Source: Bacteroidales bacterium
GTDB taxonomy: Bacteria > Bacteroidota > Bacteroidia > Bacteroidales > F082
DNA length: 64,000 nt
NCBI GenBank assembly: GCA_045634185.1
Contig: JAZQZR010000015.1
Coordinates: 5,940 to 69,939 of the forward strand
Direction of reading: 5' to 3'
Below are positions 5,401 through 63,655 of the stretch, in pieces. The position numbers and the translations under genes were made by a program. Every line of letters starts with the position of its first letter. Position 1 is the stretch's first letter. The notes beneath the pieces are model-generated. The model saw nothing but the letters and a program-made list of their open reading frames with translations. It searched no databases and was not told where the DNA came from.

Positions 5401-5733
5401 TGTTCCAATGTAAATGGTTTTGTTTGTAGCATCTTGATTGTCATAAACGATACCTCTTGTTAATGAACCATAGTTGTCTGGTCCTAATGATGTCCAGTTT
5501 AATTCACCGTCTCTTGATTGTGAGCCTTTTGTCGCTTCAAGTAACCATGCTGGATCAATTAAGCCAGTCTCTTGGTTGGCGCGAATGCTCTTCATAAATG
5601 ACTGTGCAGTTGGTTGCATAACAGATCTTGGATTGTATTTTCCAGAATCACTGTTTGCATTAACTACAAAACTTGTTTGCGCTAAGATAATGATTGTCAA
5701 AAGCAAACTAATTGGTAAAAATCTTTTTTTCAT
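2491..5733 (-). CDS. T9SS-sorted BNR/Asp-box (sortilin/VPS10-like) repeat protein
   Basis: 1080 aa with a signal peptide. Repeated S-x-D-x-G-x-T-W boxes (SVNGGITW, TSDHGATWQ, STNGGASF, SDNMSTWT). C-terminal YPNP...GTYIIRV sorting domain. Confidence 0.85.
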   Translation of the reverse strand: MKKRFLPISLLLTIIILAQTSFVVNANSDSGKYNPRSVMQPTAQSFMKSIRANQETGLIDPAWLLEATKGSQSRDGELNWTSLGPDNYGSLTRGIVYDNQDATNKTIYIGTMGGGVFKSVNGGITWKTIGSNLMVSCIAQTEDGTIYVGTGDGRGAHNQNGLSDLNYESSFVGSGIYKLEGETLTQIESTSTFVNDLAVYGNKVYAATNEGVKCYDNGWSTLIEGEAFGVETCADGDIIAVVGTDVYMSTANGFEIVTTGEENMLPKDENYKMLAAAPSDHNIIYVAYLTSTYGTGNIYMTSDHGATWQTAYTATTIYDIFGSRGLLDNAIAVYPNDPRKLLIGGLNLWVMYDQFGDGIYRLECLSNGNAFQVSQSSGVSYYNYTYIHTGIQSITFNPNNINEFFVGSEGGVFKGTCSAATGYQFEGMNRYMFDAENHTSVARMFSVAFTGKDNNASIGASLDHGTIHVIGDASINAETQAGNAIFPNDNASTNAAETYGAFDFTKAAGPCAMSTINPNAMYVTVTGGYSIGTPIFRTQTAGVDYDKENFSYSATESSAYISNSNAFRTPIALFENYNDTKSPLTAKYINRDTIDAPAGSTVLIKSNNSEYPFEYQLTEALAVGDSIEVQDIISSTFMVAVEGAVYMTRDALMFDRLVDWWKIGTINGIPNALSISADGDVAYVGTIDGNIYKYESLSEAVTSELALGLTDIPSTSSLGDSIAETTIKVEALGGTFIKTRVTPNKYVGGFNYNLYTEAQYEDMGLEAIVDELQSAEELYTTYQLKTWEDLSLGSNYYLVSTAKDKNDVWSDTIKVATIKTSAIPSAELDATEFEGRAITSIAIDPENSDNIVVTLGNYGNTDYVYYSTNGGASFTSKQGNLPAMPVYSSLIEKTTGKVILGTENGIYTSDNMSTWTQDAVIANIPVMDIKQQILANHDNKYIHLVDEVGDVVTTEYPGIFNEGVIYIATYGRGLYKCDTYKVENSEINVEENIVANTSDMSIYPNPIVSDATISFSIEKSAQVSYQIYDLSGRMMMNQVLGNYDQGSHKASFNVENLTAGTYIIRVQAGEKVETAKILVY

Positions 5734-5830
5734 ATCACCTAATTTAGATATTTATTACTAATATATAATTCACCTTTTAAGGGTGCTAAATTACTATAAT
5801 TTTTGAATACACGCAAGTTATTTTTATAAA

Positions 5831-5868
5831 AAAAACATTAATTTTTTCTTGAAAAAAGAAATGTTTTT
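5831..5868 (-). terminator. AT-rich hairpin downstream of the bat operon
   Basis: AAAAACATT...AATGTTTTT with an inner TTTTTTC/GAAAAAA stem and a T-run on the minus strand. Confidence 0.5.
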
Positions 5869-5906
5869 CGTTATATTTGTAATAATCAAAATATCAAATA
5901 CTTATT

Positions 5907-6680
5907 TTAATACTTGATGGTTGTTGATGATGGTATCCAACCGATGCTTCCGTTTGCGATTTTTATCTTGTCCCAGTTGTCAGCATGGTCCAATATTTTC
6001 ACTTTTGATCCTTCATGTAATACGAATAAATCAACGCTTGATGATGACGGAGAACTTTTGACAGTGATGGTTGGTGTTATTATTATGCCTTCGTTTTGGC
6101 CTTTTATATAGTTTGATTTCTTGATAGTAATGCTAAATGAGCATATCGACGTTATTATTAGTATTAGGCCGATAAAAAACATGCTTTTCTTTAAACCTCG
6201 TGTTCTCGCTGTAAAATAGAAATACAAACTAATCAGTAATAATCCGAAAACAATCAATGTAATTATTGACCATGTGTTAATGCTGAAAGTGTTGCTGATG
6301 TTTTTCCACCATGTTTTAATAAAAAATTCTGGAACACTTTCTATTTTGTCGCTTATGAATGCCTGAGCTATTTCTATATTGTGTTTTGTATCTTCATTCT
6401 TAGGATCAAGCTTCAATGATTTCTCATAGTAATAAATAGCCAATGGATAGTTGCCTATTTTATAATAGGTGTTGCCTAGATTGTAAAATAAAGTCGCTGA
6501 TGAATACCCTTTGTTGATGATGCTTTCATAAACTACAGCAGCAGAGTCGTAGGCGCTCTCATTATATAAGGTGTTGGCCTTGACTAATAAGTCCTCAGGT
6601 TTCTGTGCTTTTGTCTCGGTTGCCATGAAACATATCATGACAAAAAATATTATTCCTATTATGTATGTTCTGTTTTTCAT
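5907..6680 (-). CDS. batE: BatE-like TPR + SH3 domain protein
   Basis: 257 aa with a signal peptide, TPR repeats, TM segments and a C-terminal SH3b-like region (GSIGWIP). It is the last gene of the Bat operon order. Confidence 0.8.
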   Translation of the reverse strand: MKNRTYIIGIIFFVMICFMATETKAQKPEDLLVKANTLYNESAYDSAAVVYESIINKGYSSATLFYNLGNTYYKIGNYPLAIYYYEKSLKLDPKNEDTKHNIEIAQAFISDKIESVPEFFIKTWWKNISNTFSINTWSIITLIVFGLLLISLYFYFTARTRGLKKSMFFIGLILIITSICSFSITIKKSNYIKGQNEGIIITPTITVKSSPSSSSVDLFVLHEGSKVKILDHADNWDKIKIANGSIGWIPSSTTIKY

Positions 6681-6685
6681 GTCTC

Positions 6686-8530
6686 TTATTTTAAAAGTTT
6701 CTCGGCTTTTGTTATTAAATCAAATCCTTTTTGATATAATTCATCCATTTTCTTGCTTGGGTCGCCAGGTGCAAATCTTGCAAATTCACAATTGTGTAAT
6801 ATATCAATGAATTCATTTACAATATCTTCACTAACGTTTTTGTTTAACATCATTTCCTTGACAGTGTCCATCGATAATTGTGAACGAACAATATTCAACT
6901 TATCGGAAATATATCCCCATAATGCTTGTGAGAATTCCTCATAAAAGCCATTTTGGTTGTTGCTCTTCAAATAGTTGGATGCATTTAAAAGTCGTTTCTT
7001 CGCAACTTTTGTAGCTTGTTTGTTTCTGACCAAAACCTGATTCTTGTTCAGTTTGTTCATTTTGTTATTTATGATAATAGCAGCTACAAAAATTATTGCC
7101 ATTAAAACTAAGATAATAATATATGCAGGCGACATGAAGAACATTACACCTGTGATGCTCAACTTGTTGTCGGTGGTATTAATGTGTTGGATGTCTTTGC
7201 CTAAATATTTGATGTCGGCTTGTCCTGGAGTATAAATGGCGCCGCTGCCTGGTGTAGTATCTCCTTTTTTAACTTGTATGTTGTAAGCCTCAGAACTTAA
7301 TGTTTCATATTTATTTAATGATGGATTGAAATATGAAAATAATGTTTCCTTTAAATTGAAATCGCCTGATACTCGTGGTATTATAATGTATTCGGCCTTT
7401 TTACTTCCTGAAATTCCTAAAGCATTGTCTTTTATTGATGATGTGATTTTTGGGTCATAGACTTCAAAATCAGGAGGGAAGACAGGTTTAGGTAATTCTA
7501 ATAATTCGATATTGCCTTTTCCTGATACGGTTAATGTCAAAGTGAAAGCTTCATTTACTTTGAGTTCGTTCTTGTCTATCTTTGATGTGAATGTGAACTG
7601 TCCTACTGCACCTTTGAAACTATCAGGCTTGTTTGTAGTAGGCAATGGCTCGACTTCAATTGTAATAGGCTGTGATTTAATGTCTTTTCTAACGTTTGTA
7701 TATGATGTTCCTAATACATCTCCAAAGAAGTCTTCAAAAGGGTCGTAGCCTTGTGAACGGTTTCTTTGTTGTCTAATTTGTGCTATGCAATTGATGTCTA
7801 ATGGGTCTATTGTTAAACTTCCTGTCTTTTGTGGAAACAAAACAATTTCTTGAATAGTTGCAACATTATATTGTTGTCCATCTCTCATAATAGATGACTG
7901 CTGCAATGTTCCGTTGTTGTCTGTTACGTCTTTTGTCCAAAATCCTGAATATGATGGGGCTTTGGAAACAGATAATTGTGAAATTGGAATGGTGTAATAT
8001 ATTTTATATGTGAGCATTATCTGTTCTCCAAGATATACTTTTTTCTTGTTAGGAATCGCTTCAAGGAAAACTTCTTTGCTTAGGTCTTTTACTTGAGTAT
8101 TTGAATTGTTATTATAGCTGCCATTAGAATATGTGCTGTTGTTTGATGCAACAACGTTTATTTCGCATGGTTCACTTGTGATTTTCTTCTTGTCAACTGT
8201 TATGGAGGCTTGTGGAATTACGAAATTACCTTCCTTAATTGCGCGTAAATGAAAAGAATATGTCTGTATATTTGTCTTTGAAACAGAACCATTTATTATT
8301 TGTACACTTGAACTCGTTGATTTGAATGGGCCTCCGATGATTTCAAAATTGTTGAAATTTGGTGCCTTGAAATCTTTGCCGTCGGCATTTAATTCATAAG
8401 AAACTTGGAATTGTTCTCCTACAGATACTTGTCTTTTGCATATTGTTTTAAATGAGACATCGGTCTGTGCTTCAAGAGAATATGCTGCTGCAAATAAAAA
8501 TGTTATTATATATAAGAGTTTCTTTTTCAT
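6686..8530 (-). CDS. batD: BatD oxygen-tolerance protein
   Basis: 614 aa with a signal peptide, a late TM helix and a C-terminal cytoplasmic domain. Size and operon position match BatD. Confidence 0.8.
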   Translation of the reverse strand: MKKKLLYIITFLFAAAYSLEAQTDVSFKTICKRQVSVGEQFQVSYELNADGKDFKAPNFNNFEIIGGPFKSTSSSVQIINGSVSKTNIQTYSFHLRAIKEGNFVIPQASITVDKKKITSEPCEINVVASNNSTYSNGSYNNNSNTQVKDLSKEVFLEAIPNKKKVYLGEQIMLTYKIYYTIPISQLSVSKAPSYSGFWTKDVTDNNGTLQQSSIMRDGQQYNVATIQEIVLFPQKTGSLTIDPLDINCIAQIRQQRNRSQGYDPFEDFFGDVLGTSYTNVRKDIKSQPITIEVEPLPTTNKPDSFKGAVGQFTFTSKIDKNELKVNEAFTLTLTVSGKGNIELLELPKPVFPPDFEVYDPKITSSIKDNALGISGSKKAEYIIIPRVSGDFNLKETLFSYFNPSLNKYETLSSEAYNIQVKKGDTTPGSGAIYTPGQADIKYLGKDIQHINTTDNKLSITGVMFFMSPAYIIILVLMAIIFVAAIIINNKMNKLNKNQVLVRNKQATKVAKKRLLNASNYLKSNNQNGFYEEFSQALWGYISDKLNIVRSQLSMDTVKEMMLNKNVSEDIVNEFIDILHNCEFARFAPGDPSKKMDELYQKGFDLITKAEKLLK

Positions 8531-8571: not shown

Positions 8572-9330
8572 TTACCAATCTTTTTCTGATTTTCTTTTTT
8601 GCATCATAGATGCTTTTTTCTCATTCATTTCTTCCATTGTCTCTTTCTCTTGGTTTTCAAGAGCTTTCAACATTCTTTCAGCATCTTCTTTTGACATTTG
8701 TTGTTGCTGCTGCTGCTGTTGCTGTTGCTGCTGTTGCTGCTGATCTTGTTCTTGATCTTGATTCTGCTGTTGTTCTTGATTTTGTTGTTGCTGTTGATCT
8801 TGATTCTGATCTTGTTCTTGATCCTGATTCTGCTGTTGTTGTTGTTGTTGTTGTTGTTGTTGCTGGTTTTGTTGCTGTTGCTGTTGAATCATTTTCCAGC
8901 GAGCATATTCTAAATTGTATCTGAAGTCTTCGTCATCAGGGTTTATTTTAAGAGCTTTTTTGTATGATTCAAAAGCCTCGCCATATTTTTCTTGTGCCAT
9001 CAATGTGTTGCCAAGGTTGTAATATGCATTGGCTTCAATTTCATTTGAAGTGTTTCGTTCTGTTACACCTGAAAATGCTTTTGATGCTTCTTCGTAATTT
9101 TTTTGTTCGTATAAAGCGTCGCCCAAATTAAATTGTGCTTTTGGACTATACTCCTTATCCAGTGATTTTCTGTAATTTACTTCAGCTTCTGAATAGTTGC
9201 CATTTTTGAATTCTCTGTTGCCATGTCTGATATGGCCTTTGTCTGTCTGAGCTTCTGAAGTCAGCCAGACAAATGTAAACAATATGCTAATGCCTATTTT
9301 AATATTAATTGTTTTCATCTTTTGGCTCAA
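8572..9330 (-). CDS. batC: BatC-like TPR protein with a 63-residue Q/N/D/E-rich tract
   Basis: 252 aa with TPR repeats followed by a poly-Q tract. The start may instead be the MKT codon 12 nt downstream. It overlaps the end of batB. Confidence 0.8.
   Translation of the reverse strand: MSQKMKTINIKIGISILFTFVWLTSEAQTDKGHIRHGNREFKNGNYSEAEVNYRKSLDKEYSPKAQFNLGDALYEQKNYEEASKAFSGVTERNTSNEIEANAYYNLGNTLMAQEKYGEAFESYKKALKINPDDEDFRYNLEYARWKMIQQQQQQNQQQQQQQQQQQQNQDQEQDQNQDQQQQQNQEQQQNQDQEQDQQQQQQQQQQQQQQQMSKEDAERMLKALENQEKETMEEMNEKKASMMQKRKSEKDW
8698..8886. repeat. CAA/CAG-rich low-complexity tract encoding the BatC poly-Q region
   Basis: 189 nt of (CAR)n interspersed with GAT/GAA/AAT codons, containing internally duplicated blocks. 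Confidence 0.9.
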
Positions 9331-22160: not shown

Positions 22161-22194
22161 ACTTGTAGTCTTGTAGTCATGTTGTCTTGTAGTC
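22161..22194. repeat. 34-nt CTTGTAGT-type stutter block
   Basis: ACTTGTAGTCTTGTAGTCATGTTGTCTTGTAGTC followed by T8. It has the same length and the same ends as the block at 63474-63507. Confidence 0.9.
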
Positions 22195-22204
22195 TTTTTT
22201 TTCC

Positions 22205-23577: not shown

Positions 23578-23607
23578 CTGTTGTCCGTTGTCCGTTGTCC
23601 GTTGTCT
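23578..23607. repeat. GTTGTCC stutter (x3-4)
   Basis: CTGTTGTCCGTTGTCCGTTGTCCGTTGTC followed by a T-run, immediately upstream of a -7 box. Confidence 0.9.
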
Positions 23608-30933: not shown

Positions 30934-31060
30934 TTAAAGTTTAGAGTGTAAAGTTTAGAGTGTAGAGTAGTTGAAAGTTTATATAAATTCAAAGACTCTA
31001 CACTTTATTCTATAAACTCTACACCCTACACCCTACACTCTACACCATAAACACTACACT
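30934..31060. repeat. stutter palindrome, TAGAGTGTA / TACACTCTA word family
   Basis: The left arm is repeated AGTTTAGAGTGTA and the right arm is repeated CTCTACAC/CCTACAC. The arms are imperfect reverse complements of each other. Confidence 0.85.
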
Positions 31061-31063
31061 AAA

Positions 31064-32476
31064 ATGATAACATTCTCAATAGCCTTAATAATCCTCGTCT
31101 TAGGATATTTCATCTACGGAAGATATATCAGCCGTATGTTCGGCGTTGACGAGAAACGTGCTACTCCGGCAGTGACAAAAAACGACGGCGTCGATTATAT
31201 CGAGATGCCTACATGGAAAATCTTCATGATACAATTCCTTAACATCGCTGGACTTGGTCCAATCTTCGGAGCTATCATGGGAGCGAAGTTCGGAACGTCG
31301 TCATATCTCTGGATTGTGCTGGGAACTATATTCGCCGGCGCCGTCCACGATTACCTCTCTGGAATGGTGTCGCTGCGTAACGACGGCGCCAGTCTCCCTC
31401 AGATAGTTGGTAAATATCTAGGAAAGAAGACAGAAAGAGTGATGATAATATTCACCTTGTTATTGATGGTGCTTGTCGTAGCTGTCTTTGTATTGCAGCC
31501 GGCGCAGCTCATTGCGGGAATGACACCTACTAATCTCAACGTATATTTCTGGGTGATTGTGATATTCGCTTATTATCTCATCGCTACCATTTTGCCAATA
31601 GACAAAGTCATCGGAAATGTATATCCTCTCTTCGGCGGAGCCTTGATGTTTATGGCGATAGGAATACTCGTCGTTCTTTTTATCAAACAACCGGAACTCC
31701 CAGAGATGTGGAACAGCTTCGGAACGAAATATGAATCGGGACCGATATTCCCTATGATGTTCATATCCATCGCCTGCGGCGCTATCAGCGGATTCCATGC
31801 CACACAGTCGCCTCTCATGGCTCGCTGCCTCAAGAATGAGAGACACGGACGTCCTGTCTTCTACGGCGCTATGGTGGTAGAAGGCATAGTCGCTTTGATA
31901 TGGGCTGCTGCTGCAACGACATTTTTCCAGGAACATGGTAGCAACTTCACCGCAGCGCAGGTGGTTGACTTCTTGTGTAAAGACTGGCTCGGCGCACTCG
32001 GCGGAATACTAGCCATCTTAGGTGTCATCGCTGCTCCTATCACTTCGGGCGATACCGCGATGCGTTCTGCACGTCTCATACTTGCCGATATGCTGCACAT
32101 GGAACAGAAGAGCATCTCTAAACGCTTGTTGCTCTGCGCTCCTTTGTTTGTGGTATCCCTCGGATTGCTTGTCTTCAGCATCGTCAACGCTAACGGATTC
32201 ACAATAATATGGCGTTATTTCTCATGGTGCAACCAGACACTCTCGGTGTTCACTCTATGGGCATTGACGGTATATCTCGTCCTTGAAAAGAAAAATTATT
32301 TCGTGACATTATTGCCGGCACTCTTTATGACTTGTGTCGTCACGACATATATCTGCATCGCGCCAGAAGGATTCCAAATCAATCCTACAATCTCTTATGT
32401 GTTTGGCGGCGTTGTGACATTGGCAGCGATGTTTCTTTTCGCAAGATGGGAAAAAAGCTTAAAGCTTAAAGTTTAG
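31064..32476 (+). CDS. cstA: carbon starvation protein CstA family transporter
   Basis: 470 aa, polytopic, with the HDY and GFH motifs of the CstA family. Confidence 0.85.
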   Translation: MITFSIALIILVLGYFIYGRYISRMFGVDEKRATPAVTKNDGVDYIEMPTWKIFMIQFLNIAGLGPIFGAIMGAKFGTSSYLWIVLGTIFAGAVHDYLSGMVSLRNDGASLPQIVGKYLGKKTERVMIIFTLLLMVLVVAVFVLQPAQLIAGMTPTNLNVYFWVIVIFAYYLIATILPIDKVIGNVYPLFGGALMFMAIGILVVLFIKQPELPEMWNSFGTKYESGPIFPMMFISIACGAISGFHATQSPLMARCLKNERHGRPVFYGAMVVEGIVALIWAAAATTFFQEHGSNFTAAQVVDFLCKDWLGALGGILAILGVIAAPITSGDTAMRSARLILADMLHMEQKSISKRLLLCAPLFVVSLGLLVFSIVNANGFTIIWRYFSWCNQTLSVFTLWALTVYLVLEKKNYFVTLLPALFMTCVVTTYICIAPEGFQINPTISYVFGGVVTLAAMFLFARWEKSLKLKV

Positions 32477-32514
32477 AGTTCAGAGTTCAAGGTTCAGAGT
32501 TCAAAGTTCAAAAA
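32477..32514. repeat. CAGAGTTCA stutter
   Basis: AGTTCAGAGTTCAAGGTTCAGAGTTCAAAGTTCAAAAA starts directly after the cstA stop codon. Confidence 0.9.
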
Positions 32515-32523
32515 TTATGCATT

Positions 32524-34338
32524 ATGAATTATGAATTATGCATTAACGACAATGTTAAGGATTTTATAAAAAAACATCTGAAAGACGATGTCAACAAATT
32601 GGCGTTGTCGAAGTTCCCGGAAGGCATCGACAGGGAATTTGTCATCCGACAGATTCATGCGCGTCAGGTGTTGGACAAGAAGTTGCCATCATGGGCGGGA
32701 AACGATGAACTCATTTTCCCTAAAAAACTGTCGTTGGAACAATGTTCGTCCGAACTCACCGCAAAATATAAAACGACTCTGTTATCCACGAAAGCACACG
32801 AAACCACACGAAAAGAATTTAGTGCCAATTCGTGCGATTTAGTGGATGAAGAAAAATCCACGAATCTTCACGAATCTTCACGAAAAGAATTTAGTGCCAA
32901 TTCGTGCGATTTAGTGGATGAAAAAATATCCACGAAAGCACACGAAACCACACGAAAAGAATTTAGTGGCAATTCGTGCGATTTAGTGGATGAAGAAAAA
33001 TCCACGAAACCACACGAAACTTCACGAAAAGGATTTAGTGCAGATTCGTGCAATTTAGTGGATGAAGATTTAGTGGAAGAAAAGTTATCCACGAATCTTC
33101 ACGAATCTTCACGAAAAGAATTTAGTGCCAATTCGTGCAATTTAGTGGATGAAAAGTTGTCTACGAAATCACACGAAATCACACGAAAAGAATTTAGTGC
33201 CAATTCGTGCAATTTAGCGGATGAAAAAATATCCACGAAACCCCACGAAACTTCACGAAAAGAATTTAGTGCCGATTCGTGCAATTTAGTGGATGAACAT
33301 TTAGTGGATGAAAAGAGAATATTAGTGGACCTCACTGGCGGCATGGGTGTCGACACGGCTTTTCTATCTGATGATTTTGATAAGGCATATTACGTGGAGA
33401 TGCAGGAGGAACTATGCGAGATAGCAAAGCATAATTTTAAGATTCTCAATAAAAATATTGAAGTCGTCAACGATAACGCTGAGCATTTCCTAACAATATG
33501 CGACAAAGCAGATTGCATCTATCTCGACCCCGCTCGTCGCGACGAATACGGTCGTAAGATGGTCTCGCTTCATGATTGCTCGCCTGATACTGCTGAACTA
33601 CAAGACATCTTATTAGAGAAGGCGAAGACTGTCATAGTGAAACTTTCTCCTATGCTCGATATTGATATTGTCAAGAAAGAGTTAAAGAATATTAAGGAAA
33701 TACATGTCGTCGCTGTTAGAAATGAATGTAAAGAACTTGTTGTGGTTCTTGGTCAACAGACAACAGACAACGGACAACAGACTTCTTTCACGGCTCACGG
33801 ACCGAAGTTCATGGCAATAGATTTACGTGAGGGATGGAATTTCTCTTTCACTGAAGACGAAGAACAAAATGCTGAATGGACATTGGCTGATACTGTCGGG
33901 AAATATCTCTATGAACCTGGCGTGGCTTGCATGAAAGCCGGATGCTTCAAGCTTTTGTCGCAAAAATATAATCTGGATAAACTGCATAGAAACAGTCATT
34001 TATATACTTCTGACGAATTGATGCACGATTTTCCAGGAAGAATATTTGAAGTTATAAATGCTGTTCCTTTTGATAAGAAAACGAAGAAAAACATTTGGAC
34101 TTTAAGTTTTGAAGACGCAAAGATACCAAGACACCAAAACGCAAAGAATGACTCTGCGACTCTGAGTCTCTGCGACTCTGCGACCTTAAAAAAAGCAAGC
34201 GTAGCGACTCGTAATTTCCCTCTCTCGGCAGAAGAACTGAAAAAGAACCTGGGATTACAAGACGGCAACAATTTCTATATCTTCGGCACCACGATGAAAG
34301 GCGAGAAGAAGATAGTTGTCCTGACGAAGAAAATATGA
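32524..34338 (+). CDS. class I SAM-dependent methyltransferase with a THUMP-like C-terminal domain, interrupted by repeat insertions
   Basis: 604 aa. Motif I DLTGGMGVD, then YLDPARR, and a C-terminal LYEPGVACMKAGCFK...NSHLYTSD...FPGR region. Residues ~88-265 are tandem repeats. Confidence 0.85.
   Translation: MNYELCINDNVKDFIKKHLKDDVNKLALSKFPEGIDREFVIRQIHARQVLDKKLPSWAGNDELIFPKKLSLEQCSSELTAKYKTTLLSTKAHETTRKEFSANSCDLVDEEKSTNLHESSRKEFSANSCDLVDEKISTKAHETTRKEFSGNSCDLVDEEKSTKPHETSRKGFSADSCNLVDEDLVEEKLSTNLHESSRKEFSANSCNLVDEKLSTKSHEITRKEFSANSCNLADEKISTKPHETSRKEFSADSCNLVDEHLVDEKRILVDLTGGMGVDTAFLSDDFDKAYYVEMQEELCEIAKHNFKILNKNIEVVNDNAEHFLTICDKADCIYLDPARRDEYGRKMVSLHDCSPDTAELQDILLEKAKTVIVKLSPMLDIDIVKKELKNIKEIHVVAVRNECKELVVVLGQQTTDNGQQTSFTAHGPKFMAIDLREGWNFSFTEDEEQNAEWTLADTVGKYLYEPGVACMKAGCFKLLSQKYNLDKLHRNSHLYTSDELMHDFPGRIFEVINAVPFDKKTKKNIWTLSFEDAKIPRHQNAKNDSATLSLCDSATLKKASVATRNFPLSAEELKKNLGLQDGNNFYIFGTTMKGEKKIVVLTKKI
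32785..33318 (+). repeat. Seven tandem units (5 x 72 nt, 2 x 87 nt) inside the methyltransferase CDS
   Basis: Unit starts are 32785, 32857, 32929, 33001, 33088, 33160 and 33232. Consensus: TCCACGAAAnCACACGAAAnCACACGAAAAGAATTTAGTGCCAATTCGTGCnATTTAGTGGATGAA. Confidence 0.95.
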
Positions 34339-34491
34339 ACTTTGAACTCAGACACTGATGGCTGATAGCTGACAGCTTTCAGCTAATCCGGGCGTTCCGG
34401 CGAAGCCGTCGGGCTTTCCGCTATATCTTTGCTCGCTCCGCTTACGCCTCCGCTCGCAAAGGATGCCGCTTCAATCCCTAACGCGGTGGGG
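34337..34491 (+). repeat. Left composite arm: TGAACTC and GACAGCT stutters plus GC-rich element copy B (34390-34491)
   Basis: It aligns by eye, as a reverse complement, with 35467-35602. Confidence 0.9.
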
Positions 34492-34561
34492 TGATACTAA
34501 AAAAATAGATTTTTTTATTCTGAATTTTTGAATTTCTGAGTTTTTGAGTTTCAAAAAAATA

Positions 34562-35466: not shown

Positions 35467-35622
35467 GCGTTAGGGATTGGAGCGGCATCCTTTTGAAGCG
35501 GAGCGGAAAAAGATATAGCGGAAAGCCCGACGGCAGAGCCGGAACGCCCAAATTAGCTGTCAGCTGTCAGCTGTCAGCCATCAGTGTCAGAGTTCATAGT
35601 TCAGAATTCAGAGTTCAAAAAA
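35467..35622 (-). repeat. Right composite arm: GC-rich element copy C (35467-35549, inverted) plus AGCTGTC and CAGAGTTCA stutters
   Basis: Its reverse complement matches the left arm block for block. Confidence 0.9.
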
Positions 35623-35660
35623 TAATTCCTCATTCCTAACTCCAAATTCCTAATTTTTCA

Positions 35661-35691: not shown

Positions 35692-37050
35692 ATGGCTCAG
35701 AAACCTTCAATACCGAAAGGAACACGTGACTTCTTGCCTGAAGTCATGGTCCGTCGTAATTATATCTTCGATACTATAAAAGGCGTTTTTAAACGTTTTG
35801 GTTTTCAACCTATTGAGACTCCATCTATGGAGAATCTCTCTACACTCCTCGGCAAATATGGAGAGGAAGGCGACAAACTTTTGTTCCGTATCCTCAACTC
35901 AGGCGATTTTATGTCGGGCGTGGAACAGAATGGCGAAGCACTGCAGTCAGAGAAAATCGCGGGCAAGATTTGCGAGAAAGGGCTCCGTTATGACCTCACC
36001 GTGCCATTCGCACGTTTCGTGGTGCAATATCGCGACCAGATAGCATTCCCATTCCGTCGCTATCAGATTCAACCAGTATGGCGTGCCGACCGTCCTCAGA
36101 AAGGTCGCTACCGTGAGTTCTATCAATGCGATGTCGACATTGTCGGAAGCAACTCAATACTCAACGAAGCTGAACTCGTTCAGATAGTCGATGAGGTTTT
36201 CAACGCATTGAAAATTAACGTAGTCTTAAAGATAAACAATAGAAAAGTCCTTGCTGGTATAGCAGAATATATCGGCAAGCCAGACGCTCTCGTCGACATC
36301 ACTGTCGCTATCGACAAACTTGATAAGATAGGCATCGACGCTGTCAATGCAGAACTCGCACAAAAAGGTCTTGACGCAGCAGCGATAGAAAAGTTACAGC
36401 CAATACTCTTCATGAAAGGCGACGCACGCGAGAAATTCGCACAGCTCAAGTCATTGATGAGCGGCATCGAAGTAGGAGAGAAAGGTATTGAAGAACTTGA
36501 GACATTGTTCGACTACATCGACGACATGAACGTCGGCATCGAATATGAACTCGACCTCACACTTGCTCGCGGATTGAATTATTACACAGGAGCTATCTTT
36601 GAAGTTAAGGCTAAAGACGTGGCTATGGGCAGCATCTCAGGCGGCGGTCGTTATGACAACCTCACCGGCATCTTCGGCTTGCAAGGCGTCTCTGGCGTCG
36701 GCATCAGCTTCGGCGCTGACCGTATCTACGACGTTCTCACAGAGTTGAACCTCTTCCCAGAAAAGAACGGCGACATAACAGAAGTCATTTTCCTCAACTT
36801 CGGTCCAAAAGAAGAGCGTTATTGCTTGCCATATCTCCAACAGCTGAGAAGAAACGGCATCAACGCAGAAATATATCCTGACTCAGCAAAACTTCAAAAA
36901 CAAATGAAATACGCCGACCAACGCGGAATACCGGTTGTAGTCATGGCAGGTGAAGACGAAATGAATAACAAGACATTCACCGTCAAATTCATGAAAGAAG
37001 GACGTCAGGAAAAAATATCAGCAGAAAATTTAATTGAAATAATCAAATAA
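35692..37050 (+). CDS. hisS: histidine--tRNA ligase
   Basis: 452 aa with class II motifs ([18 protein letters not shown]). Confidence 0.95.
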
Positions 37051-38555: not shown

Positions 38556-38655
38556 TAGTGTAAAGTTGAGAGAGTAGAGTTTAGAGTAGTTAGATGTGTA
38601 TACTATCAACTGCTTTAAACTCTACACTTTACACTCTACACTTTAAACTAATAAT
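38556..38655. repeat. stutter palindrome, TAGAGT/ACTCTA word family
   Basis: The left arm is GTGTAAAGTTGAGAGAGTAGAGTTTAGAGTAG and the right arm is CTTTAAACTCTACACTTTACACTCTACACTTTAAAC. Confidence 0.85.
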
Positions 38656-40377: not shown

Positions 40378-40514
40378 GAAGACTACAAGACTACAAGTTA
40401 AAGCCTTAAAGTTTCAAAATCTCAGGATGTGATTCTAAATACATGTCTCGTAATGGTATGCTTAAAATAAAGCAGACATCTATTAGACTGAGGTTGTATT
40501 TTCTATCACATCCT

Positions 40515-45130: not shown

Positions 45131-45277
45131 ACAAATTCTTTTATTCAAACGTACACCTTTAATTAAAAAAAAACTCAAAATCTCAGAATCTCATAAACTC
45201 ATATTAAGAACTTTCGGACCTTTATGTCTTTATGCCTTTTTTTGATTTTTTTGAATTCTGTTATTTTAAAAAAGTCT

Positions 45278-48641: not shown

Positions 48642-48745
48642 TTAGAGTCGAGTTATCTTAATTTTTTTTGAACAATTTAAAAACCTATTTGTTAAAAATA
48701 CACTCTACACTATAAACTCTACACTCTGCAAAAAACTTTTTTAAA

Positions 48746-56968: not shown

Positions 56969-58663
56969 ATGAATATATATCAACTTTTTGTAAGAACATT
57001 CGGAAATAAAAATAAAGACATCGTCTTCGATGGCGACAAGTCTCAAAATAAATGCGGCACTTTCGCTGATATTAACGACAATGCCTTAGACGCTCTCAAG
57101 ACTTTGGGTATCACTCATATCTGGCTGACAGGCGTGATTCGCCATTCGAGTATGACGGCATATCCTGAGCTGGGGATAAAATCCAGCAATCCTCTCATCA
57201 CCAAAGGCAAGGCGGGTTCTCCTTATTCTATCATGGATTATTATGACATCGACCCAGACCTCGCTGTCAATCCGCAGAATAGGATGGAGGAGTTTGAAGA
57301 CGTCATGCAACGCATCCATGATAAAGGCATGAAGGTTATTATCGACTTTATCCCAAACCATCTCGCACGTGAATATAAGTCGCTGTGCAAACCGATGTAT
57401 GTGGAAGACTTCGGCGTCAATGATAATAAAAATGTCGTTTTTGCCAAAGACAATAATTTCTATTACTGTCCTGACCAACAACTTGTAATTCCTGGACAAC
57501 AGACAACTGAACTCCAGAATTCCTCAAATGCTGAATTCCTTGAATATCCTGCCAAGGCTTCAGGTAATGACGTCTTCTCTCCACAACCATCTGTCAACGA
57601 TTGGTACGACACAGTGAAGTTGAACTATGGCGTCGATTATCAAAATGGCAGCCGTTGCTTTGAACCTATACCGAATACTTGGTATAAGATGCTGGACATC
57701 ATGACATATTGGTGCGAGAGAGGCGTCGATGGATTTCGCGTCGATATGGCGGAGATGGTGCCTGTGGAGTTCTGGCGTTGGTCTATCAATATGCTTCGTG
57801 AGAACTACGAGCCTATCATGATTGCGGAGATTTATCAGCCGCATCTTTATAAGGAGTTTGTCTATGCCGGCTTCGACTATCTCTATGACAAGGTCGGACT
57901 TTATAACACTTTGGAAAATATTTATCGTTATGGTCAGCGTGCCGACAGCATCACTAACGTATGGAATGACCTTCAAGGACTTGGTGATGTGATGCTGCGT
58001 TTCATGGAGAATCATGATGAGCTGCGTCTTGCTTCGGAACATTTTGTAGGCGATGCTTTCAAGGCGCTCCCCGCAGTGACGATGGCAGCGCTTATGAACC
58101 GCGGACCTTTTATGATTTACAACGGACAGGAGAGCGGCGAAGATGCACAAGGCGCTCCTGGCTTCAGCGGCGACGACGGCAGAACCTCAATATTCGACTA
58201 TGCCGTAATGCCTAAACATCAGAACTGGATGGCTGACGGCAGATTCGACGGAAGCGACTTCACCGATGAACAAAAACGTCTCTTCGGTTTTTATTCAAAA
58301 CTGCTTAACTTCCGACTTAACAGCAGCGCTATTAATAAAGGTGCGTTCTACGACCTGATGTGGGTCAATCCTTGGTATTCCAACTTCGACCCTCAGTATG
58401 TCTACGCCTTCCTCCGTTATCATGATGAAGACAGACTGCTAGTAGTTGTCAATTTTAATCAAAACGAAAGCCGCTACTGTGAGATGAAAATCTCTGAAGA
58501 CGCAGTGGAATATATGGGGTTAAGGCCAACAGCCAATGGTCAACAGCTCACAGCAACTGATGTCTTTACTGGCGAGAAGATAGAATATAATTTTGATGAG
58601 GTCAGCACTCGTGGTATTGCGATGACACTTGAACCTTGTGGAATTAAAATTTTGAAATTATGA
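56969..58663 (+). CDS. GH13 alpha-amylase family protein
   Basis: GH13 conserved regions DFIPNH, GFRVDMAE and FMENHDE. Start taken at MNIYQLF. Confidence 0.85.
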   Translation: MNIYQLFVRTFGNKNKDIVFDGDKSQNKCGTFADINDNALDALKTLGITHIWLTGVIRHSSMTAYPELGIKSSNPLITKGKAGSPYSIMDYYDIDPDLAVNPQNRMEEFEDVMQRIHDKGMKVIIDFIPNHLAREYKSLCKPMYVEDFGVNDNKNVVFAKDNNFYYCPDQQLVIPGQQTTELQNSSNAEFLEYPAKASGNDVFSPQPSVNDWYDTVKLNYGVDYQNGSRCFEPIPNTWYKMLDIMTYWCERGVDGFRVDMAEMVPVEFWRWSINMLRENYEPIMIAEIYQPHLYKEFVYAGFDYLYDKVGLYNTLENIYRYGQRADSITNVWNDLQGLGDVMLRFMENHDELRLASEHFVGDAFKALPAVTMAALMNRGPFMIYNGQESGEDAQGAPGFSGDDGRTSIFDYAVMPKHQNWMADGRFDGSDFTDEQKRLFGFYSKLLNFRLNSSAINKGAFYDLMWVNPWYSNFDPQYVYAFLRYHDEDRLLVVVNFNQNESRYCEMKISEDAVEYMGLRPTANGQQLTATDVFTGEKIEYNFDEVSTRGIAMTLEPCGIKILKL

Positions 58664-60666
58664 TGAAACTTGTAGAAAACGATTCATGGCTGGAACCTGT
58701 CGCCGATGAGGTGGAGGCTCGTTATCAGCGTTATGAGTCAAAATTGAAATATATTGAAAGTCAATACGGAAGCCTGAAGTCATTTGCCTCGGCGCATGAG
58801 TTCTTCGGTTTTACGTACGACAGCTTGCGCCGAGGCTGGTGGTACCGCGAGTGGGCGCCGGCAGCTCATTATCTGTCGCTCTTCGGCGATTTCAACAACT
58901 GGGACAGATATGCCAATCCTCTTGAAAGAGAAGAAGATGGCGTGTGGAGTATCTTCCTTCCTGACTCACAATATAAGAACCGCCTTACTCATGGTAGTCT
59001 CCTTAAGGTCTTGGTGCAGTCGAGCATTGGAGAACAGGAACGCATCCCTGTCTATATCAAAAGAGTCATTCAAAATGAGGATAATAAAGACTTCGCTGGA
59101 CAATTCTGGATTGGAAAACGGACAACAGATAGTAATAAGAAAAATTCCACATTCATAATTCCTAATTCCTCATTATTTATATATGAGTCGCATATTGGAA
59201 TGGGTCAGGAGAAAGAAGACGTCGGCACTTATAAAGAGTTCGCCGAGAATGTCTTGCCTAGAATTAAGAAACTGGGATATAATGCGATACAACTGATGGC
59301 AGTGGCTGAGCATCCTTATTACGGCTCATTCGGATATCATGTGTCTAATTTCTTCGCGGCGAGCTCGCGCTTCGGTACGCCTGAAGATCTTAAGGATTTG
59401 ATTGATAAAGCCCATGAGATGGGAATAGTGGTTATCATGGACTTAGTCCATTCTCATACTGTGAAAAACACTTACGAGGGCATCAATCTCTTCGATGGAA
59501 CTGAGACGCAATATCTCGTTGGCGGTCATGAAGGCCATCATCCTCAATGGGATTCCAAACTGTTTAACTATGGAAAGACCGAGACATTACGACTGCTTCT
59601 TTCTAATGTAAGATTCTGGCTCGAGGAGTTCGGCTTCGACGGATTCCGCTTCGACGGCGTGACATCTATGTTGTATAAGAATCATGGCATCGGTGCCACT
59701 TTTGAGACTCAGACGGATTATTTCGGTGATAATGTTAACGATGATGCTGTGACATATCTCCAGCTTGCAAATACGTTAATACATCAGCTTAATAAAGATT
59801 ATATCACTATCGCGGAAGACGTTAGCGGTATGCCTGGAATATGCGCTCCTGTAGCAGACGGCGGCATTGGCTTCGACTATCGTCTCGGAATGGGTCTCCC
59901 TGACTTCTGGATTAAGGTGCTTAAAGACCAAAAAGAGGAAGACTGGAATATGCATGAATTCTTCTTCACCATGACGAACAGACTTTATAATGTGAAGACG
60001 ATAGCATACGCCGAATCACACGACCAGGCTTTGGTGGGAGATAAGACATTGGCATTCCGGCTGATGGATAAGGAGATGTATAGCTCGATGTCGAAGATGA
60101 CTCCTAGTATTGTCGTCGATAGAGGCATAGCGCTTCATAAGATGATACGACTTTTCACCATCTGTCTTGGCGGAAATGCGTGGCTGAATTTTATGGGAAA
60201 TGAGTTCGGCCATCCGGAGTGGATAGATTTTCCTCGCAAGGATAATGACTGGAGCTATAAGCACGCACGTCGTCAGTGGTCGTTGGCAGATGACGAGAAT
60301 CTGAAGTACCATTTCATGAGTGATTTCGATAAGGAAATGTTAATGTTTGTTAAGGAAAACGACATTATGAACTCAGAGCCGGCATGGCTTATGGACGCCG
60401 ATGAAGAGAACAAAACGATAGTTTTTGAGAGAAATAATCTGATGTTTGTCTTCAATTGGGGAACGAAATCTATCAGCGACTATGAAATAAACGTTAAAAA
60501 CACGGGAGATTATGAAATAATATTCAGCACTGACGACAGAGCGTTCGGTGGTTTTGAGAATATCGACAAGGATACAATCTTTCCATCTGAACAAAGGGAT
60601 AATCAAGTGTTTATGAATATATATAATGTAAGCAGGACAGCGGTAGTTTATAAAGTGAAAAGATAA
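58660..60666 (+). CDS. glgB: 1,4-alpha-glucan branching enzyme (eukaryote-type GH13)
   Basis: 668 aa with DLVHSH, GFRFDGVTSM, IAEDVSGMP and YAESHDQALVGDK motifs. It overlaps the amylase stop codon. Confidence 0.9.
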   Translation: MMKLVENDSWLEPVADEVEARYQRYESKLKYIESQYGSLKSFASAHEFFGFTYDSLRRGWWYREWAPAAHYLSLFGDFNNWDRYANPLEREEDGVWSIFLPDSQYKNRLTHGSLLKVLVQSSIGEQERIPVYIKRVIQNEDNKDFAGQFWIGKRTTDSNKKNSTFIIPNSSLFIYESHIGMGQEKEDVGTYKEFAENVLPRIKKLGYNAIQLMAVAEHPYYGSFGYHVSNFFAASSRFGTPEDLKDLIDKAHEMGIVVIMDLVHSHTVKNTYEGINLFDGTETQYLVGGHEGHHPQWDSKLFNYGKTETLRLLLSNVRFWLEEFGFDGFRFDGVTSMLYKNHGIGATFETQTDYFGDNVNDDAVTYLQLANTLIHQLNKDYITIAEDVSGMPGICAPVADGGIGFDYRLGMGLPDFWIKVLKDQKEEDWNMHEFFFTMTNRLYNVKTIAYAESHDQALVGDKTLAFRLMDKEMYSSMSKMTPSIVVDRGIALHKMIRLFTICLGGNAWLNFMGNEFGHPEWIDFPRKDNDWSYKHARRQWSLADDENLKYHFMSDFDKEMLMFVKENDIMNSEPAWLMDADEENKTIVFERNNLMFVFNWGTKSISDYEINVKNTGDYEIIFSTDDRAFGGFENIDKDTIFPSEQRDNQVFMNIYNVSRTAVVYKVKR

Positions 60667-61632: not shown

Positions 61633-63204
61633 ATGATTTTACTAACATTAAGTCACACAGCAGCATACATTCTCTTAGGAGTGGCTGCTCTCGTAGTAGG
61701 CGGTGGTATCGGCGTGTTATTATCTTCAACAGTGATGCGCAACGCCCTCACAAAAAAAAGCAATGAACTTTTAGAAGAAGCTAAAGAAAAAGCAGAAGTA
61801 ATCAAAAAAGACAAAATCCTTCAGGCTAAAGAGAAATTCTTACAGATGAAAGCCGAATACGAGAAGGAAACTAATGAACGCAAACGCGAAATCCAAAAAC
61901 TCGAATCACGCGTTCAACAACAACAACAACAAGCTAACCAACGCGAAGAAGAACTCCGCAAGAAGGCTAACGAAGTGAAAAGCCAACAACAAAGCGTTAG
62001 CGCTCAACAAGAAAATCTCCACAAACGTCAAGCAGAATTGGATAAAATCCAAGACGAACAAAAGAAACTCCTCGAGTCAATCTCTGGCCTCTCAGCATTA
62101 GAAGCTAAAGAACAACTTAAGGAAATGATGAAAGATGAGGCTGTCTCTGAAGCTATGGTCATCTCAAGAGAAATCGTTGAAGAAGCTAAGATGTCGGCTA
62201 ACCAAGAAGCTAAGAAAATCGTTCTTGAGACAATACAACGTACAGCAGCAGAACACGCTATCGAAAATACAGTATCAGTATTTAATATTGAAAACGACGA
62301 AATAAAAGGTCGTATCATCGGACGTGAAGGTAGAAACATCCGTACTTTGGAATCTCTTACAGGCGTTGAAATCATTATCGACGACAGCCCTGACGCTATC
62401 TTGCTCTCTGGCTTCGACCCAATCCGCCGCGAAATAGCTCGCCTTTCTTTACAAAAACTCGTTACAGACGGTCGTATCCACCCAGCTCGTATCGAAGAAG
62501 TCGTTAAGAAAGTTGAGAAACAAGTTGAACAAGAAATCATCGAAACAGGTAAACGTACAGTCATCGACCTCGGCATCCATAACCTCAGCCCTGAACTCAT
62601 CAGAATGATAGGTCGTATGAAATATCGTTCATCATACGGTCAAAACTTATTGCAACACTCTATTGAAGTAGCTAAACTCAGTTCTTCAATGGCTGCTGAA
62701 CTCGGTCTTAATCCTAAGACAGCTAAACGTGCCGGTCTCCTCCACGATATCGGTAAAGTGGCTGAAAACGACGAAGAATTGCCACACGCAATCTTAGGTA
62801 TGAAGACAGCTGAGAAATATAAAGAAAAAGCTGACGTATGCAACGCTATCGGTGCTCACCACGACGAAATTGAAATGGAAACACTTATCGCTCCTATCGT
62901 TCAAGTGTGTGACGCTATCTCAGGCGCTCGTCCAGGCGCTCGCCGTGAAGTCGTTGAGGCTTACATCCAACGTCTTAACAAACTCGAAGAAATGGCAATG
63001 GCATTCCCTGGCGTCGTCAAGACTTACGCTATCCAAGCAGGCCGCGAATTGCGCGTCATCGTTGCTGCTGATAAAGTAAGCGATACAGAAGCCGACCGCA
63101 TCTCATTCGACCTCTCTAAACAAATCCAGACAGAGATGACTTATCCAGGTCAAATTAAAATCACTGTCATCAGAGAAACAAGAGCTGTTAGCTTCGCGAA
63201 ATAA
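61633..63204 (+). CDS. rny: ribonuclease Y
   Basis: 523 aa with an N-terminal TM helix, a coiled coil, a KH domain ([12 protein letters not shown]) and an HD domain (LLHDIGK). Confidence 0.95.
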
Positions 63205-63207
63205 AAA

Positions 63208-63241
63208 GACTACAAGTCTACAAGACAACAAGACTACAAGT
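63208..63241 (+). repeat. 34-nt ACTACAAG stutter block, left copy of an inverted pair
   Basis: GACTACAAGTCTACAAGACAACAAGACTACAAGT. The reverse complement of 63474-63507 matches at 32 of 34 positions. Confidence 0.95.
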
Positions 63242-63288
63242 AGAGACGTATCAAAATTCTTTGAATTTTGCTGCGTCTCTCTTTTTTT
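63242..63288 (+). terminator. intrinsic terminator after rny
   Basis: Outer stem AGAGACG/CGTCTCT, inner stem AAAATTC/GAATTTT, then a T-run. Confidence 0.75.
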
Positions 63289-63473
63289 GTCTATTATACC
63301 TTTTTTTAAATCTCAGAAACTCAAAACCTCAGAATCTCAGAAGAACTTTGAACTCTAAACCTTTTTAGTAATGAAGTGATGTGAAAAATTTCTCAACCCT
63401 GAAATCCTCCATCCACGAAATCGCACGAAACTACACGAAATTTTTTTTCTGTGAAAACCACATCACCCCAACA

Positions 63474-63507
63474 ACTTGTAGTCATGTAGTCTTGTAGACT
63501 TGTAGTC
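63474..63507 (-). repeat. 34-nt CTTGTAGT stutter block, right copy of the inverted pair
   Basis: ACTTGTAGTCATGTAGTCTTGTAGACTTGTAGTC. Confidence 0.95.
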
Positions 63508-63517
63508 TTCTTTCTTT

Positions 63518-63610
63518 GGGCGTTCCGTCTCCGCTTCGCTCCGCCGTCGGGCTTTCCGCTATATCTTTTTCCGCTGCGCTCCAAAAGGATGCCGCTCCAA
63601 TCCCTAACGC
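63518..63610 (+). repeat. GC-rich interspersed element, copy D
   Basis: GGGCGTTCCG-TCTCCGCTTCGCTCC-GCCGTCGGGCTTTCCGCTATATCTTTTTCCGCTGCGCTCCAAAAGGATGCCGCTCCAATCCCTAACGC. Confidence 0.9.
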
Positions 63611-63655
63611 ACTGGAGAATTCTAGAACTTTAGAATTCTAGAACCTCAGAAAATT

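Follow-up and report, generated by a model that had tools for sequence, protein, structure and literature searches.

How does a conserved enzyme gene come to carry seven translated, hairpin-forming DNA repeats within its reading frame? The question was raised by a 64,000-nt stretch of a Bacteroidales genome (contig JAZQZR010000015.1, positions 5,940 to 69,939 of the forward strand; this whole stretch is referred to as the window), in which an array of 72- and 87-nt units lies inside the gene for a putative S-adenosylmethionine (SAM)-dependent methyltransferase. A preliminary description of the window had proposed that an intergenic-type palindromic element entered this gene and was amplified with the frame preserved, a reading that the analysis supports. 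It is considered probable (about 0.7) that a hairpin belonging to a widespread family was captured in frame in an inter-domain linker of the enzyme and was then expanded and contracted under a filter on the reading frame, the encoded peptide probably being a tolerated, flexible linker.

The array occupies positions 32785-33318 and consists of seven head-to-tail units of 72, 72, 72, 87, 72, 72 and 87 nt, in this order. The units, and the repeats nested in them or built from them, are listed below; the limits of the hairpin cores were set by a cross-phylum covariance model (R1, described further on).

32785-32856, forward strand: unit 1 of the in-frame array (hairpin core 32784-32847)
32857-32928, forward strand: unit 2 (core 32856-32919)
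32929-33000, forward strand: unit 3 (core 32928-32991)
33001-33087, forward strand: unit 4 (core 33000-33063)
33088-33159, forward strand: unit 5 (core 33087-33150)
33160-33231, forward strand: unit 6 (core 33159-33222)
33232-33318, forward strand: unit 7 (core 33231-33294)
33053-33081 and 33284-33312, forward strand: nested 15-nt duplication of the ATTTAGTGGAAGAAG type (period 15, 1.9 copies)
32836-33316, forward strand: 231-nt higher-order repeat in which units 2-4 resemble units 5-7 (period 231, 2.1 copies, 90% matches)

The last two entries were obtained with Tandem Repeats Finder (TRF), which scored the array as a whole at 606, with 6.9 copies of a 72-nt period. The array encodes amino acids 88-265 (178 aa) of the open reading frame (ORF) 32524-34338 on the forward strand. 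The unit starts, the unit lengths and the in-frame translation given in the preliminary description were all confirmed, and so was the 10-nt sub-periodicity, period-10 sub-arrays being found by TRF in each of the seven units.

Every unit contains three CACGAA hexamers at 10-nt phase, followed by TTAGTG, TTCGTG and TTAGTG in the opposite sense, and all seven open with (A/T)(A/T/G)TC-CACGAA or a one-mismatch variant of it. With up to two mismatches allowed, the first-half pattern CACGAAAnnnCACGAAAnnnCACGAAA gave 8 matches in the window, compared to 0 expected from 100 dinucleotide-preserving shuffles; the second-half pattern gave 7, again with 0 expected from such shuffles. The 87-nt units correspond to the 72-nt unit with a nested 15-nt duplication (ATTTAGTGGATGAAS), and orthologues carry 0, 1 or 2 of these extra 15-mers. 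The final 6 nt of the array (AAGAGA) may belong to the flank and not to a unit.

The second half of each unit had been described as an inverse of the first, and folding bore this out. An imperfect hairpin of about 62 nt was obtained per unit, with -8.6 to -13.6 kcal/mol (DNA parameters) and z-scores of -2.1 to -5.2 against shuffled sequences. Across orthologue units, 95% of the proposed pairs were formed, compared to 22-42% when the partner was slid.

The gene that carries the array, with the two segments that border the insertion, is as follows.

32524-34338, forward strand: coding sequence (CDS) of a 604-aa PG_1098-type (THUMP-like) SAM-dependent methyltransferase (ORF, Pfam, PDB 3LL7)
32524-32784, forward strand: N-terminal helical region, aa 1-87, ending in TAKYKTTLL; conserved in all orthologues (3LL7 alignment)
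33328-33354, forward strand: motif I, DLTGGMGVD, the start of the Rossmann fold, aligned to VVDLTGGLGID of 3LL7

Two Pfam families were matched above their cutoffs: PG_1098_Fer (PF22013) at aa 461-504 (E 6e-23, 80.9 bits, cutoff 27) and, at the C-terminus, Thump_like (PF18096) at aa 549-602 (E 2.8e-14, 53.2 bits, cutoff 26). Rossmann methyltransferase matches at aa 258-340 were weak, and generic methyltransferase families fell below their cutoffs. The structure 3LL7 (Porphyromonas gingivalis PG_1098), deposited as a "putative methyltransferase", was matched with E 1.3e-55 over query residues 38-87, 263-523 and 555-603. The N-terminal part corresponds to 3LL7 residues 42-91 and query 263-523 to chain residues 93-355, with the same domain order and motif I, as expected of an orthologue-level relative. 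By these matches the host protein is taken to be a PG_1098/THUMP-like SAM methyltransferase, a putative assignment; one source labels a fragment of it RsmD, a label that was not confirmed.

Residues 88-262 form a 175-aa insertion between 3LL7 chain residues 91 and 93, that is, in the link from the N-terminal helical region to strand beta-1 and motif I. Motif I, invariant across 31 orthologues, stands just after the array, as had been stated. Compared to 3LL7, the window protein has three repeat-filled loops, namely the 175-aa insertion just described, a loop that has been replaced, and a further insertion of about 27 aa.

The rate of evolution of the gene was compared with that of its neighbours (32524-34338 against 31064-32476 and 35692-37050). 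Amino acid identity to relatives was 76-89% for the methyltransferase, compared to 90-97% for CstA and 97-99% for HisRS; its fast evolution indicates relaxed constraint on the host gene.

Relatives were surveyed as the best 120 in the database, 418 to 588 aa in length. Among them, 0 to 6 or 7 units were found between AKYK..L and (I/L)(V/I)DLTGGMGVD, so that the gap predicted in the preliminary description was seen both in orthologues and in 3LL7. Zero-copy orthologues have the empty site AKYKASLLKGKTLIDLTGG, and a one-unit allele reads ...LLSTKSHEITRREFSEDSCSLADEKRILIDLTGG. The empty site KGKTL occurred in 10 of these best 120 orthologues, and the outgroup has EGTKV there. A search of metagenome loci with the window protein returned 5 loci, and the assembly index has no exact match for this protein. 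The 12 loci for which DNA was available share the neighbourhood RF-1, CstA, methyltransferase and HisRS, so the predicted variation in copy number, with one-copy and multi-copy alleles at the same site, was found in assemblies of conserved synteny.

The carriers are closely related (HisRS 97-99% amino acid and 90-95% nucleotide identity; CstA 81-93% nucleotide identity). They are listed as "Bacteroidales bacterium" metagenome-assembled genomes, and the record names point to ruminant gut samples. One neighbourhood differs in a further respect: locus L001 has a DpnII-type restriction-modification cassette (MethyltransfD12, DpnII, N6_N4_Mtase; 4523-7173) between the xanthine/uracil permease and RF-1 genes, where the window, L002 and L004 have none.

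In 12 genes, 42 units were delimited, with lengths of 27, 63, 66, 69, 72, 81, 87 or 102 nt. All 42 are divisible by three, although the sub-periods are 10 and 15 nt. In three allele pairs the flanks (399-421 aa) are 100% identical and the arrays are one or two whole units apart in length; the array is therefore a coding minisatellite, or variable-number tandem repeat (VNTR). A further comparison gave 25 allele pairs with at least 97% identical flanks that differ by at least 15 aa. Copy number appears to change faster than point substitution, because alleles with identical flanks already differ by whole units.

Conservation of the repeat was then assigned to the DNA or to the protein by codon position. 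Among 36 distinct units, column entropy was 0.10 in the hexamer cores, whichever codon position (1, 2 or 3) was taken, and 0.53-0.81 in the spacers. For the divergent comparison, the window was set against L004, L131, L132 and L134. Third-position identity was 0.55-0.62 in the gene flanks, compared to 0.90-0.99 in the CACGAA/TTCGTG/TTAGTG cores. Identity at first and second codon positions of the spacers was 0.62-0.76, below that of the flanks; the 4-nt spacers change freely and non-synonymously. Selection on the protein would be expected to produce the reverse; it is the nucleotide sequence of the repeat that is conserved, not the peptide. The preliminary description had named a protein-level repeat conserved in unrelated genera as one observation that would speak against an invading element; what was found instead was a single group of close carriers and conservation of the DNA.

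The repeat peptide gave only three matches among 1.84 billion representatives, two of which are N-terminal fragments of the same methyltransferase. The third, P0128 (171 aa), has tandem units of about 31 aa (…TTNSHKGTRNSFRVVSCDLVVPVPKRLKPE…) that resemble a reverse-strand frame of CACGAA hairpins, and is probably a translated or miscalled tandem hairpin array of an unrelated organism. The P0128 ORF apart, the peptide was found in no other protein family among these representatives, and the repeat matched no Pfam or NCBIfam repeat family. Its absence from other families therefore favours capture at one site followed by local amplification, in the manner of Rickettsia palindromic elements (RPEs) or PARCEL repeats.

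Relatives of the unit outside this gene were sought by scanning one genome per species with the pattern CACGAA-N4-CACGAA-N4-CACGAA, and the counts that follow hold among the matches listed. These include Verrucomicrobiota, Planctomycetota, Acidobacteriota, Chloroflexota, other Bacteroidota, Proteobacteria, Firmicutes, Spirochaetes, an archaeon and others. Loci L006-L125 are genome contigs from more than 15 phyla, and L136-L255 are IMG/VR contigs. The architecture of the family is A(A/T)C-CACGAA-N4-CACGAA-N4-CACGAA, a loop or cargo of 3-130 nt, and an inverted arm. The window unit follows it, with arm 1 reading ATC-CACGAA-N4-CACGAA-N4-CACGAA and arm 2 TTAGTG-N4-TTCGTG-N4-TTAGTGGAT; a stem of about 29 bp is formed by the inverted arm. 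The TTAGTG variant puts a fixed G.A mismatch in two second-arm hexamers and also occurs in other phyla (L038, L083).

The raw number of CACGAA triplet matches was rejected as evidence for a family, as permuted hexamers were about as frequent in viral contigs. The case rests on the inverted arm, the flank consensus, the presence of exactly three units, covariation and a covariance model. An inverted arm within 300 nt was present in 63 of 159 matches (17 of 139 in viral contigs), compared to 0 of 127 and 0 of 84 for two permuted-hexamer controls. Flanks outside the search pattern were conserved, with C at -1 in 139/159 and A at -3 in 113/159, exactly three hexamers were present in nearly all matches, and the closing A(A/T)CC...GG(A/T)T was conserved across phyla. 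In 39 distinct compact hairpins, both-side (compensatory) changes were found in 10 of 29 pairs. Such changes filled 77 cells, compared to 31.4 ± 5.7 in shuffles (0/500), and the covariation score was 0.189, compared to 0.076 in shuffles (0/500) and at most 0.07 with slid partners.

Model R1 was built from the hairpins of other phyla alone. All seven window units were matched at full length over positions 1-62, with 39.6-50.9 bits and E-values of 1.6e-11 to 2.9e-8, which are rough owing to a short calibration. In 201,681 nt of this genus, the model gave 76 matches, all of them in methyltransferase arrays.

In other phyla, several copies fall in the interval from the stop codon of one gene to the start codon that follows (e.g., L011 and L086); a stop-free-stretch test of coding status was uninformative for other-phyla copies in high-GC genomes. 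Unlike this intergenic habit, the window units lie inside a CDS and in frame. Two sub-types of the hairpin were noted, AACCACGAATGRA... and ATCCACGAAG..., and on some contigs (L038, L147, L202) 3-5 copies occur within 8 kb.

The word string that had been noticed in non-coding DNA of the window is real:

63412-63440, forward strand: half-element between genes, TCCACGAAATCGCACGAAACTACACGAAA, with three CACGAA and no clear inverted arm (no full hairpin by R1)

On one side of it ORF 61633-63204 stops, and on the other a histidine-kinase ORF of the minus strand ends. In L001, L126 and L135, half-elements are also found immediately 3' of the stop codon of the methyltransferase. Together with the complete hairpins of many phyla, these positions agree with the view of the repeat as an intergenic-type element.

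A search of Rfam 15 at the gathering threshold, covering the window and seven hairpin loci, returned tRNA and Flavo-1 alone, the hairpin family being without a match; in E-value mode, region 32700-33400 gave only chance miRNA-type matches. Resemblances to DnaA boxes, parS, MuA sites, attC and the tRNA T-arm were set aside as unsupported. Literature searches on hexamer strings and 18-mers returned nothing relevant, and general searches returned only analogues (RPE, PARCEL, BrickBuilt and TAACTGA arrays).

The hairpin family itself may be the part that is new. Tentatively, the CACGAA-triplet hairpin can be read as an uncatalogued structured element of more than 15 bacterial phyla and viral contigs, possibly served by a conserved, hypothetical trans-acting factor, with the methyltransferase array as a rare coding capture that would still be constrained by recognition. 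Such recognition would explain why synonymous sites in the hexamers are fixed while the rest of the gene is nearly saturated.

The same nucleotide-level constancy makes a still-active cis function the main rival to in-frame capture followed by tolerated expansion. Under this rival, the array would be a working nucleic-acid element whose hairpins or phased CACGAA words are bound or processed in mRNA or DNA, its copy number tuning expression or a local DNA transaction. Besides the hexamer third positions, which stand far above synonymous sites elsewhere in the gene, it can draw on the hexamers, phasing and closing pairs kept across phyla with compensatory stem changes, and on the many copies of other phyla placed between stop and start in the manner of REP/BIME-type mRNA elements. 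However, sister species with no copy or one retain an intact gene, and variation among alleles with identical flanks fits drift better than tuning. Covariation was not seen within the methyltransferase units, two of the three second-arm hexamers carry a fixed mismatch, and there is neither an Rfam family nor a known binding factor. We regard this rival as rather unlikely, though a serious one. A protein domain under amino acid selection, either an adjustable spacer or a His/Cys/acidic metal- or RNA-binding module (STKxHExxRKxFSxxSCxLVDE), is improbable. The array is in frame and stop-free in all of about 110 carriers, nearly every unit has the His, the Cys and the acidic tail, and a position between two domains would suit a tether. 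The conserved residues, however, are those encoded by the DNA hexamers, whose synonymous sites are conserved too, while spacer-encoded residues vary freely. The motif is known from no other family in the searches above, the insert is predicted as coil with the lowest model confidence, and zero-copy orthologues exist; the codon-position test already disfavours this explanation.

Two further explanations dispense with capture altogether. An origin in place, by slippage and inverted duplication of local sequence, is suggested by the native flank after the array (ATATTAGTGGAC, encoding ILVD), which resembles the 3' end of the unit (ATTTAGTGGAT), by the short-period arrays found throughout this genome, including two other loops of the same gene, and by the lack of a complete donor copy in the 201,681 nt of this genus. 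The unit nevertheless fits the other-phyla model over all 62 positions, sharing the flanking ATC and the closing GGAT, the same genomes have identical half-elements in their non-coding DNA, and the empty-site flank CTTATTGAT is unlike the unit, which leaves local origin very improbable. Least credible is a misassembly of the array or of its copy number. At 534 nt, the array is longer than short reads, its units are 80-100% identical, and metagenome assemblies of relatives give many different copy numbers. Against this stand more than 100 independent assemblies with in-frame units at the same site, 231-nt blocks that are only 90% identical, and units that differ at defined positions. The exact count of seven units is nevertheless that of the assembly alone.

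Several observations weigh against the capture and tolerated expansion of a hairpin from a widespread family. Outside the methyltransferase, R1 found no complete hairpin in the 201,681 nt of this genus, where half-elements only were present, so that no donor copy was seen there. No target-site duplication was visible when the empty site (L002) was compared with the one-copy site (L004). Covariation within the methyltransferase units was not significant because the pairs are almost invariant, and hairpin selection inside the gene is therefore no more than putative. The copy numbers of relatives come from short-read metagenome assemblies, which are able to collapse 72-nt repeats. As for a disordered loop, for which a structure prediction had been suggested, the AF2 model (31-sequence alignment) did show the insert as coil at the lowest confidence (pLDDT 21-26); as the model was poor overall (mean pLDDT 36), disorder is only weakly supported.

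The distribution of empty alleles adds to these points. In a neighbour-joining tree, empty alleles occur at four places inside the carrier tree, and for this reason the history of gain and loss is not simple. Empty alleles have in common KGKT, a fixed 4-aa haplotype; the corresponding residues are EKRI in carriers and EGTKV in the outgroup. This points to an ancestral empty state with recombination among species, rather than to repeated clean excision. The nesting suggests that species have exchanged alleles by recombination, rather than that one gain or one loss took place; interspecies recombination, or a more complex history, is needed to accommodate it.

Comparison with known systems places the array between several of them. 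RPEs are palindromic and otherwise intergenic, and they are found in frame in housekeeping genes, where they are translated and fold-compatible (review PMC10969869; PMC1779305). The likeness to RPEs that had been proposed holds for a palindromic, otherwise intergenic repeat inserted in frame in an enzyme gene and translated as an extra segment. It does not extend to size and distribution: RPEs measure about 100-150 bp and occur in Rickettsia only, as single copies in dozens of unrelated genes, whereas the window unit is 63-72 nt of 10-nt sub-repeats in another phylum, confined to one site of one orthologous gene, in tandem and with variable copy number, and its family spans many phyla. Dispersal over many genes, the hallmark of RPEs, was not found: the peptide occurred only in the methyltransferase orthogroup, and R1 gave no match in other genes within 201 kb.

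PARCEL units code for about 25 aa (75 nt), show dyad symmetry in the DNA and form variable tandem arrays with a punctate distribution across phyla (2010, PMC2996958). Unit size, dyad symmetry of the coding DNA, variable-number tandem arrays and punctate distribution across phyla are common to both. PARCELs, however, are defined by a protein profile hidden Markov model (HMM) and make up whole ORFs of membrane or surface proteins that have no assigned function, whereas the window repeat is an insert in an enzyme, is conserved as DNA and has non-coding relatives. No match to the corresponding HMMs, DUF285 (Pfam) or TIGR02167 (NCBIfam), was obtained at E ≤ 0.1.

With REP/BIME/REPIN sequences and with MITEs (miniature transposable elements with inverted repeats; Correia, ERIC, BOX, BrickBuilt), the hairpin family has in common short imperfect palindromes or inverted half-sites that are usually intergenic and often within operons. 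REP sequences are lineage-specific, whereas the CACGAA hexamers are common to many phyla. Some MITEs occur occasionally inside genes as in-frame fusions, and the BrickBuilt element of P. gingivalis, also a member of Bacteroidota, contains a minisatellite (PMC4596501, PMC10969869, PMC3184786). Inverted arms of the MITE kind are present in the window unit, and no target-site duplication accompanies them (L002 against L004). No transposase or RAYT partner turned up in the 64 kb of genome covered, in which no search aimed at transposases was made. BrickBuilt is reported to be strictly intergenic (PMC10969869, PMC4596501); as the sole related report from Bacteroidota that was found, it leaves uncontradicted the earlier remark that such a capture had not been described in this phylum.

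Coding VNTRs and mycobacterial interspersed repetitive units (MIRUs) share with the array units that are multiples of three, a copy number that varies between close relatives and, in the reading favoured here, change by slippage or unequal recombination. MIRUs lie between cistrons and expand or contract by slippage or unequal recombination. Classical coding VNTRs are found in surface proteins and are conserved as peptides; here the host, judged by its sequence, is a cytoplasmic RNA-methyltransferase-like enzyme, and the unit would be a captured hairpin.

Short intergenic arrays (long simple sequence repeats, TAACTGA arrays and the cyanobacterial STRR) likewise have 7-10-nt units and lie in spacers and at gene ends. 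The TAACTGA unit is common to distant phyla and has no known vehicle (MacGregor 2015, citing Mrazek 2007; PMC4679880). Such arrays are simple and direct, whereas the architecture of the hairpin is fixed: three phased hexamers, neither more nor fewer, come after a defined 5' flank and are followed by an inverted arm.

Short arrays of this kind also reach into the methyltransferase gene and its start:

32513-32545, forward strand: heptamer array AATTATG x4.7, which gives the methyltransferase start codon and MNYELCIN (TRF)
33754-33782, forward strand: heptamer array CAACAGA x4, encoding QQTTDNGQQT, a second variable loop (TRF, in frame)
34112-34184, forward strand: octamer arrays in the linker that precedes the THUMP-like domain, first AAGACACC-type and then GACTCTGC x4.4, each an imperfect inverse complement of the other (TRF, in frame)

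In orthologues, the loop at 33754-33782 is AATTCAG-type in L131 and GGAATTCA + GACTCTGC in L127. The linker at 34112-34184 is the insertion of about 27 aa relative to 3LL7 and displaces profile positions 1-19 of PF18096; it is made of (CAACAGA)n+(CTCAAAG)n in L001, L002, L131 and L135, and nothing is present in L134. These two array-bearing loops lie between NECKE and DLRE and between FDKKTKK and RNFPL (compared in L001, L002, L004, L127, L131 and L134). Across orthologues, they are filled with CAACAGA, AATTCAG, GGAATTCA, GACTCTGC, AAGACGCA or CTCAAAG, or with none of these, which suggests that arrays in coding loops turn over or are replaced rapidly.

Gene ends are affected as well. The tail of CstA (...KSLKLKV and stop) comes from (AAAGCTT)n at 32454-32476, and the C-terminal tail of the histidine kinase (...DTESQSRRDAESEL and stop) from a GACTCTGC-type array at about 63660-63700 on the minus strand; a GACTCTGC-type octamer array is also found in non-coding DNA at 63667-63701. 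Because arrays occupy methyltransferase loops as well as gene starts and tails, the methyltransferase is taken to belong to a genome in which it is common for repeat arrays to extend into genes; the CACGAA hairpin is the most elaborate case.

Nearly all intergenic spacers of the window consist largely of 7-8-nt units in 3-6 copies, with the same few unit types recurring. Examples are 1475-1509, 22162-22196, 23580-23606, 30935-31060, 32454-32545, 35555-35655, 38560-38649, 40379-40397, 45171-45254, 48699-48727 and 63206-63701. Units AAGACTAC/CTTGTAGT were seen at 22162, 40379, 63206 and 63475, the GACTCTGC type at 34150 and 63667, and the AATTC type at 34518, 35623, 59143 and 63616. Often the short arrays come as inverted pairs with other arrays enclosed between them. 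In other phyla, such unit types adjoin CACGAA hairpins, with CTCTGCG in an Opitutae contig (L090) and the AATTC type in L102.

Two Flavo-1 motifs (RF01705) were found on the minus strand at 34403-34502 and 63541-63621, with 43.6 and 42.1 bits (gathering score 42). Both lie in repeat-rich spacers, one of them directly downstream of the methyltransferase, and they are consistent with a Bacteroidota origin.

A GH13 glucan-branching enzyme (ORF 58660-60666) was considered as a second invaded gene and rejected. Its loop at 59143-59174 contains an in-frame (AATTCCT)n-like stretch preceded by CAACAGA (…RTTDSNKKNSTFIIPNSS…), but is only about 3 aa longer than in human GBE1 (4BZY) and so no clear insertion. 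ORF 8572-9318 on the minus strand (248 aa) has a Q/N/D/E-rich tract at 8698-8886, built from (GCAACA)n with periods 6 and 24. This tract is an ordinary coding microsatellite, distinct in kind from the hairpin array.

The course of events favoured here, capture followed by frame-filtered expansion and contraction, can be outlined as follows. The unit would be a hairpin element of about 63-72 nt with two inverted half-sites, from a family that is normally intergenic in many phyla. One copy would have become established, with the frame kept, in the linker that joins the N-terminal helical domain to strand beta-1 (motif I), in the ancestor of a group of ruminant-gut Bacteroidales species or by recombination among them. 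Slippage and unequal recombination, favoured by the hairpins and the near-identical units, may then have gained and lost 15-nt sub-repeats, 27-nt half units, 63-72-nt units and 231-nt blocks, while selection would purge changes that put the catalytic domain downstream out of frame. At 24-183 aa (178 in the window), the translated insert most likely serves as a disordered linker that is tolerated and whose sequence matters little. The nucleotide constancy of the hexamer cores implies either continued recognition by a hypothetical family-wide factor or templated correction from other copies.

Read in this way, the locus is a natural experiment in which close relatives carry from 0 to 7 translated copies at a single site of a single enzyme. 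It lets the tolerance of captured selfish or structural DNA, and the origin of coding minisatellites, be tested directly. The hairpin family, if truly undescribed, would be a candidate for a widespread inter-cistron cis-element or for a mobile element with a putative protein partner. For annotation, the locus means that repeats which are usually intergenic can sit in conserved Bacteroidales enzymes, where they inflate and diversify protein length.

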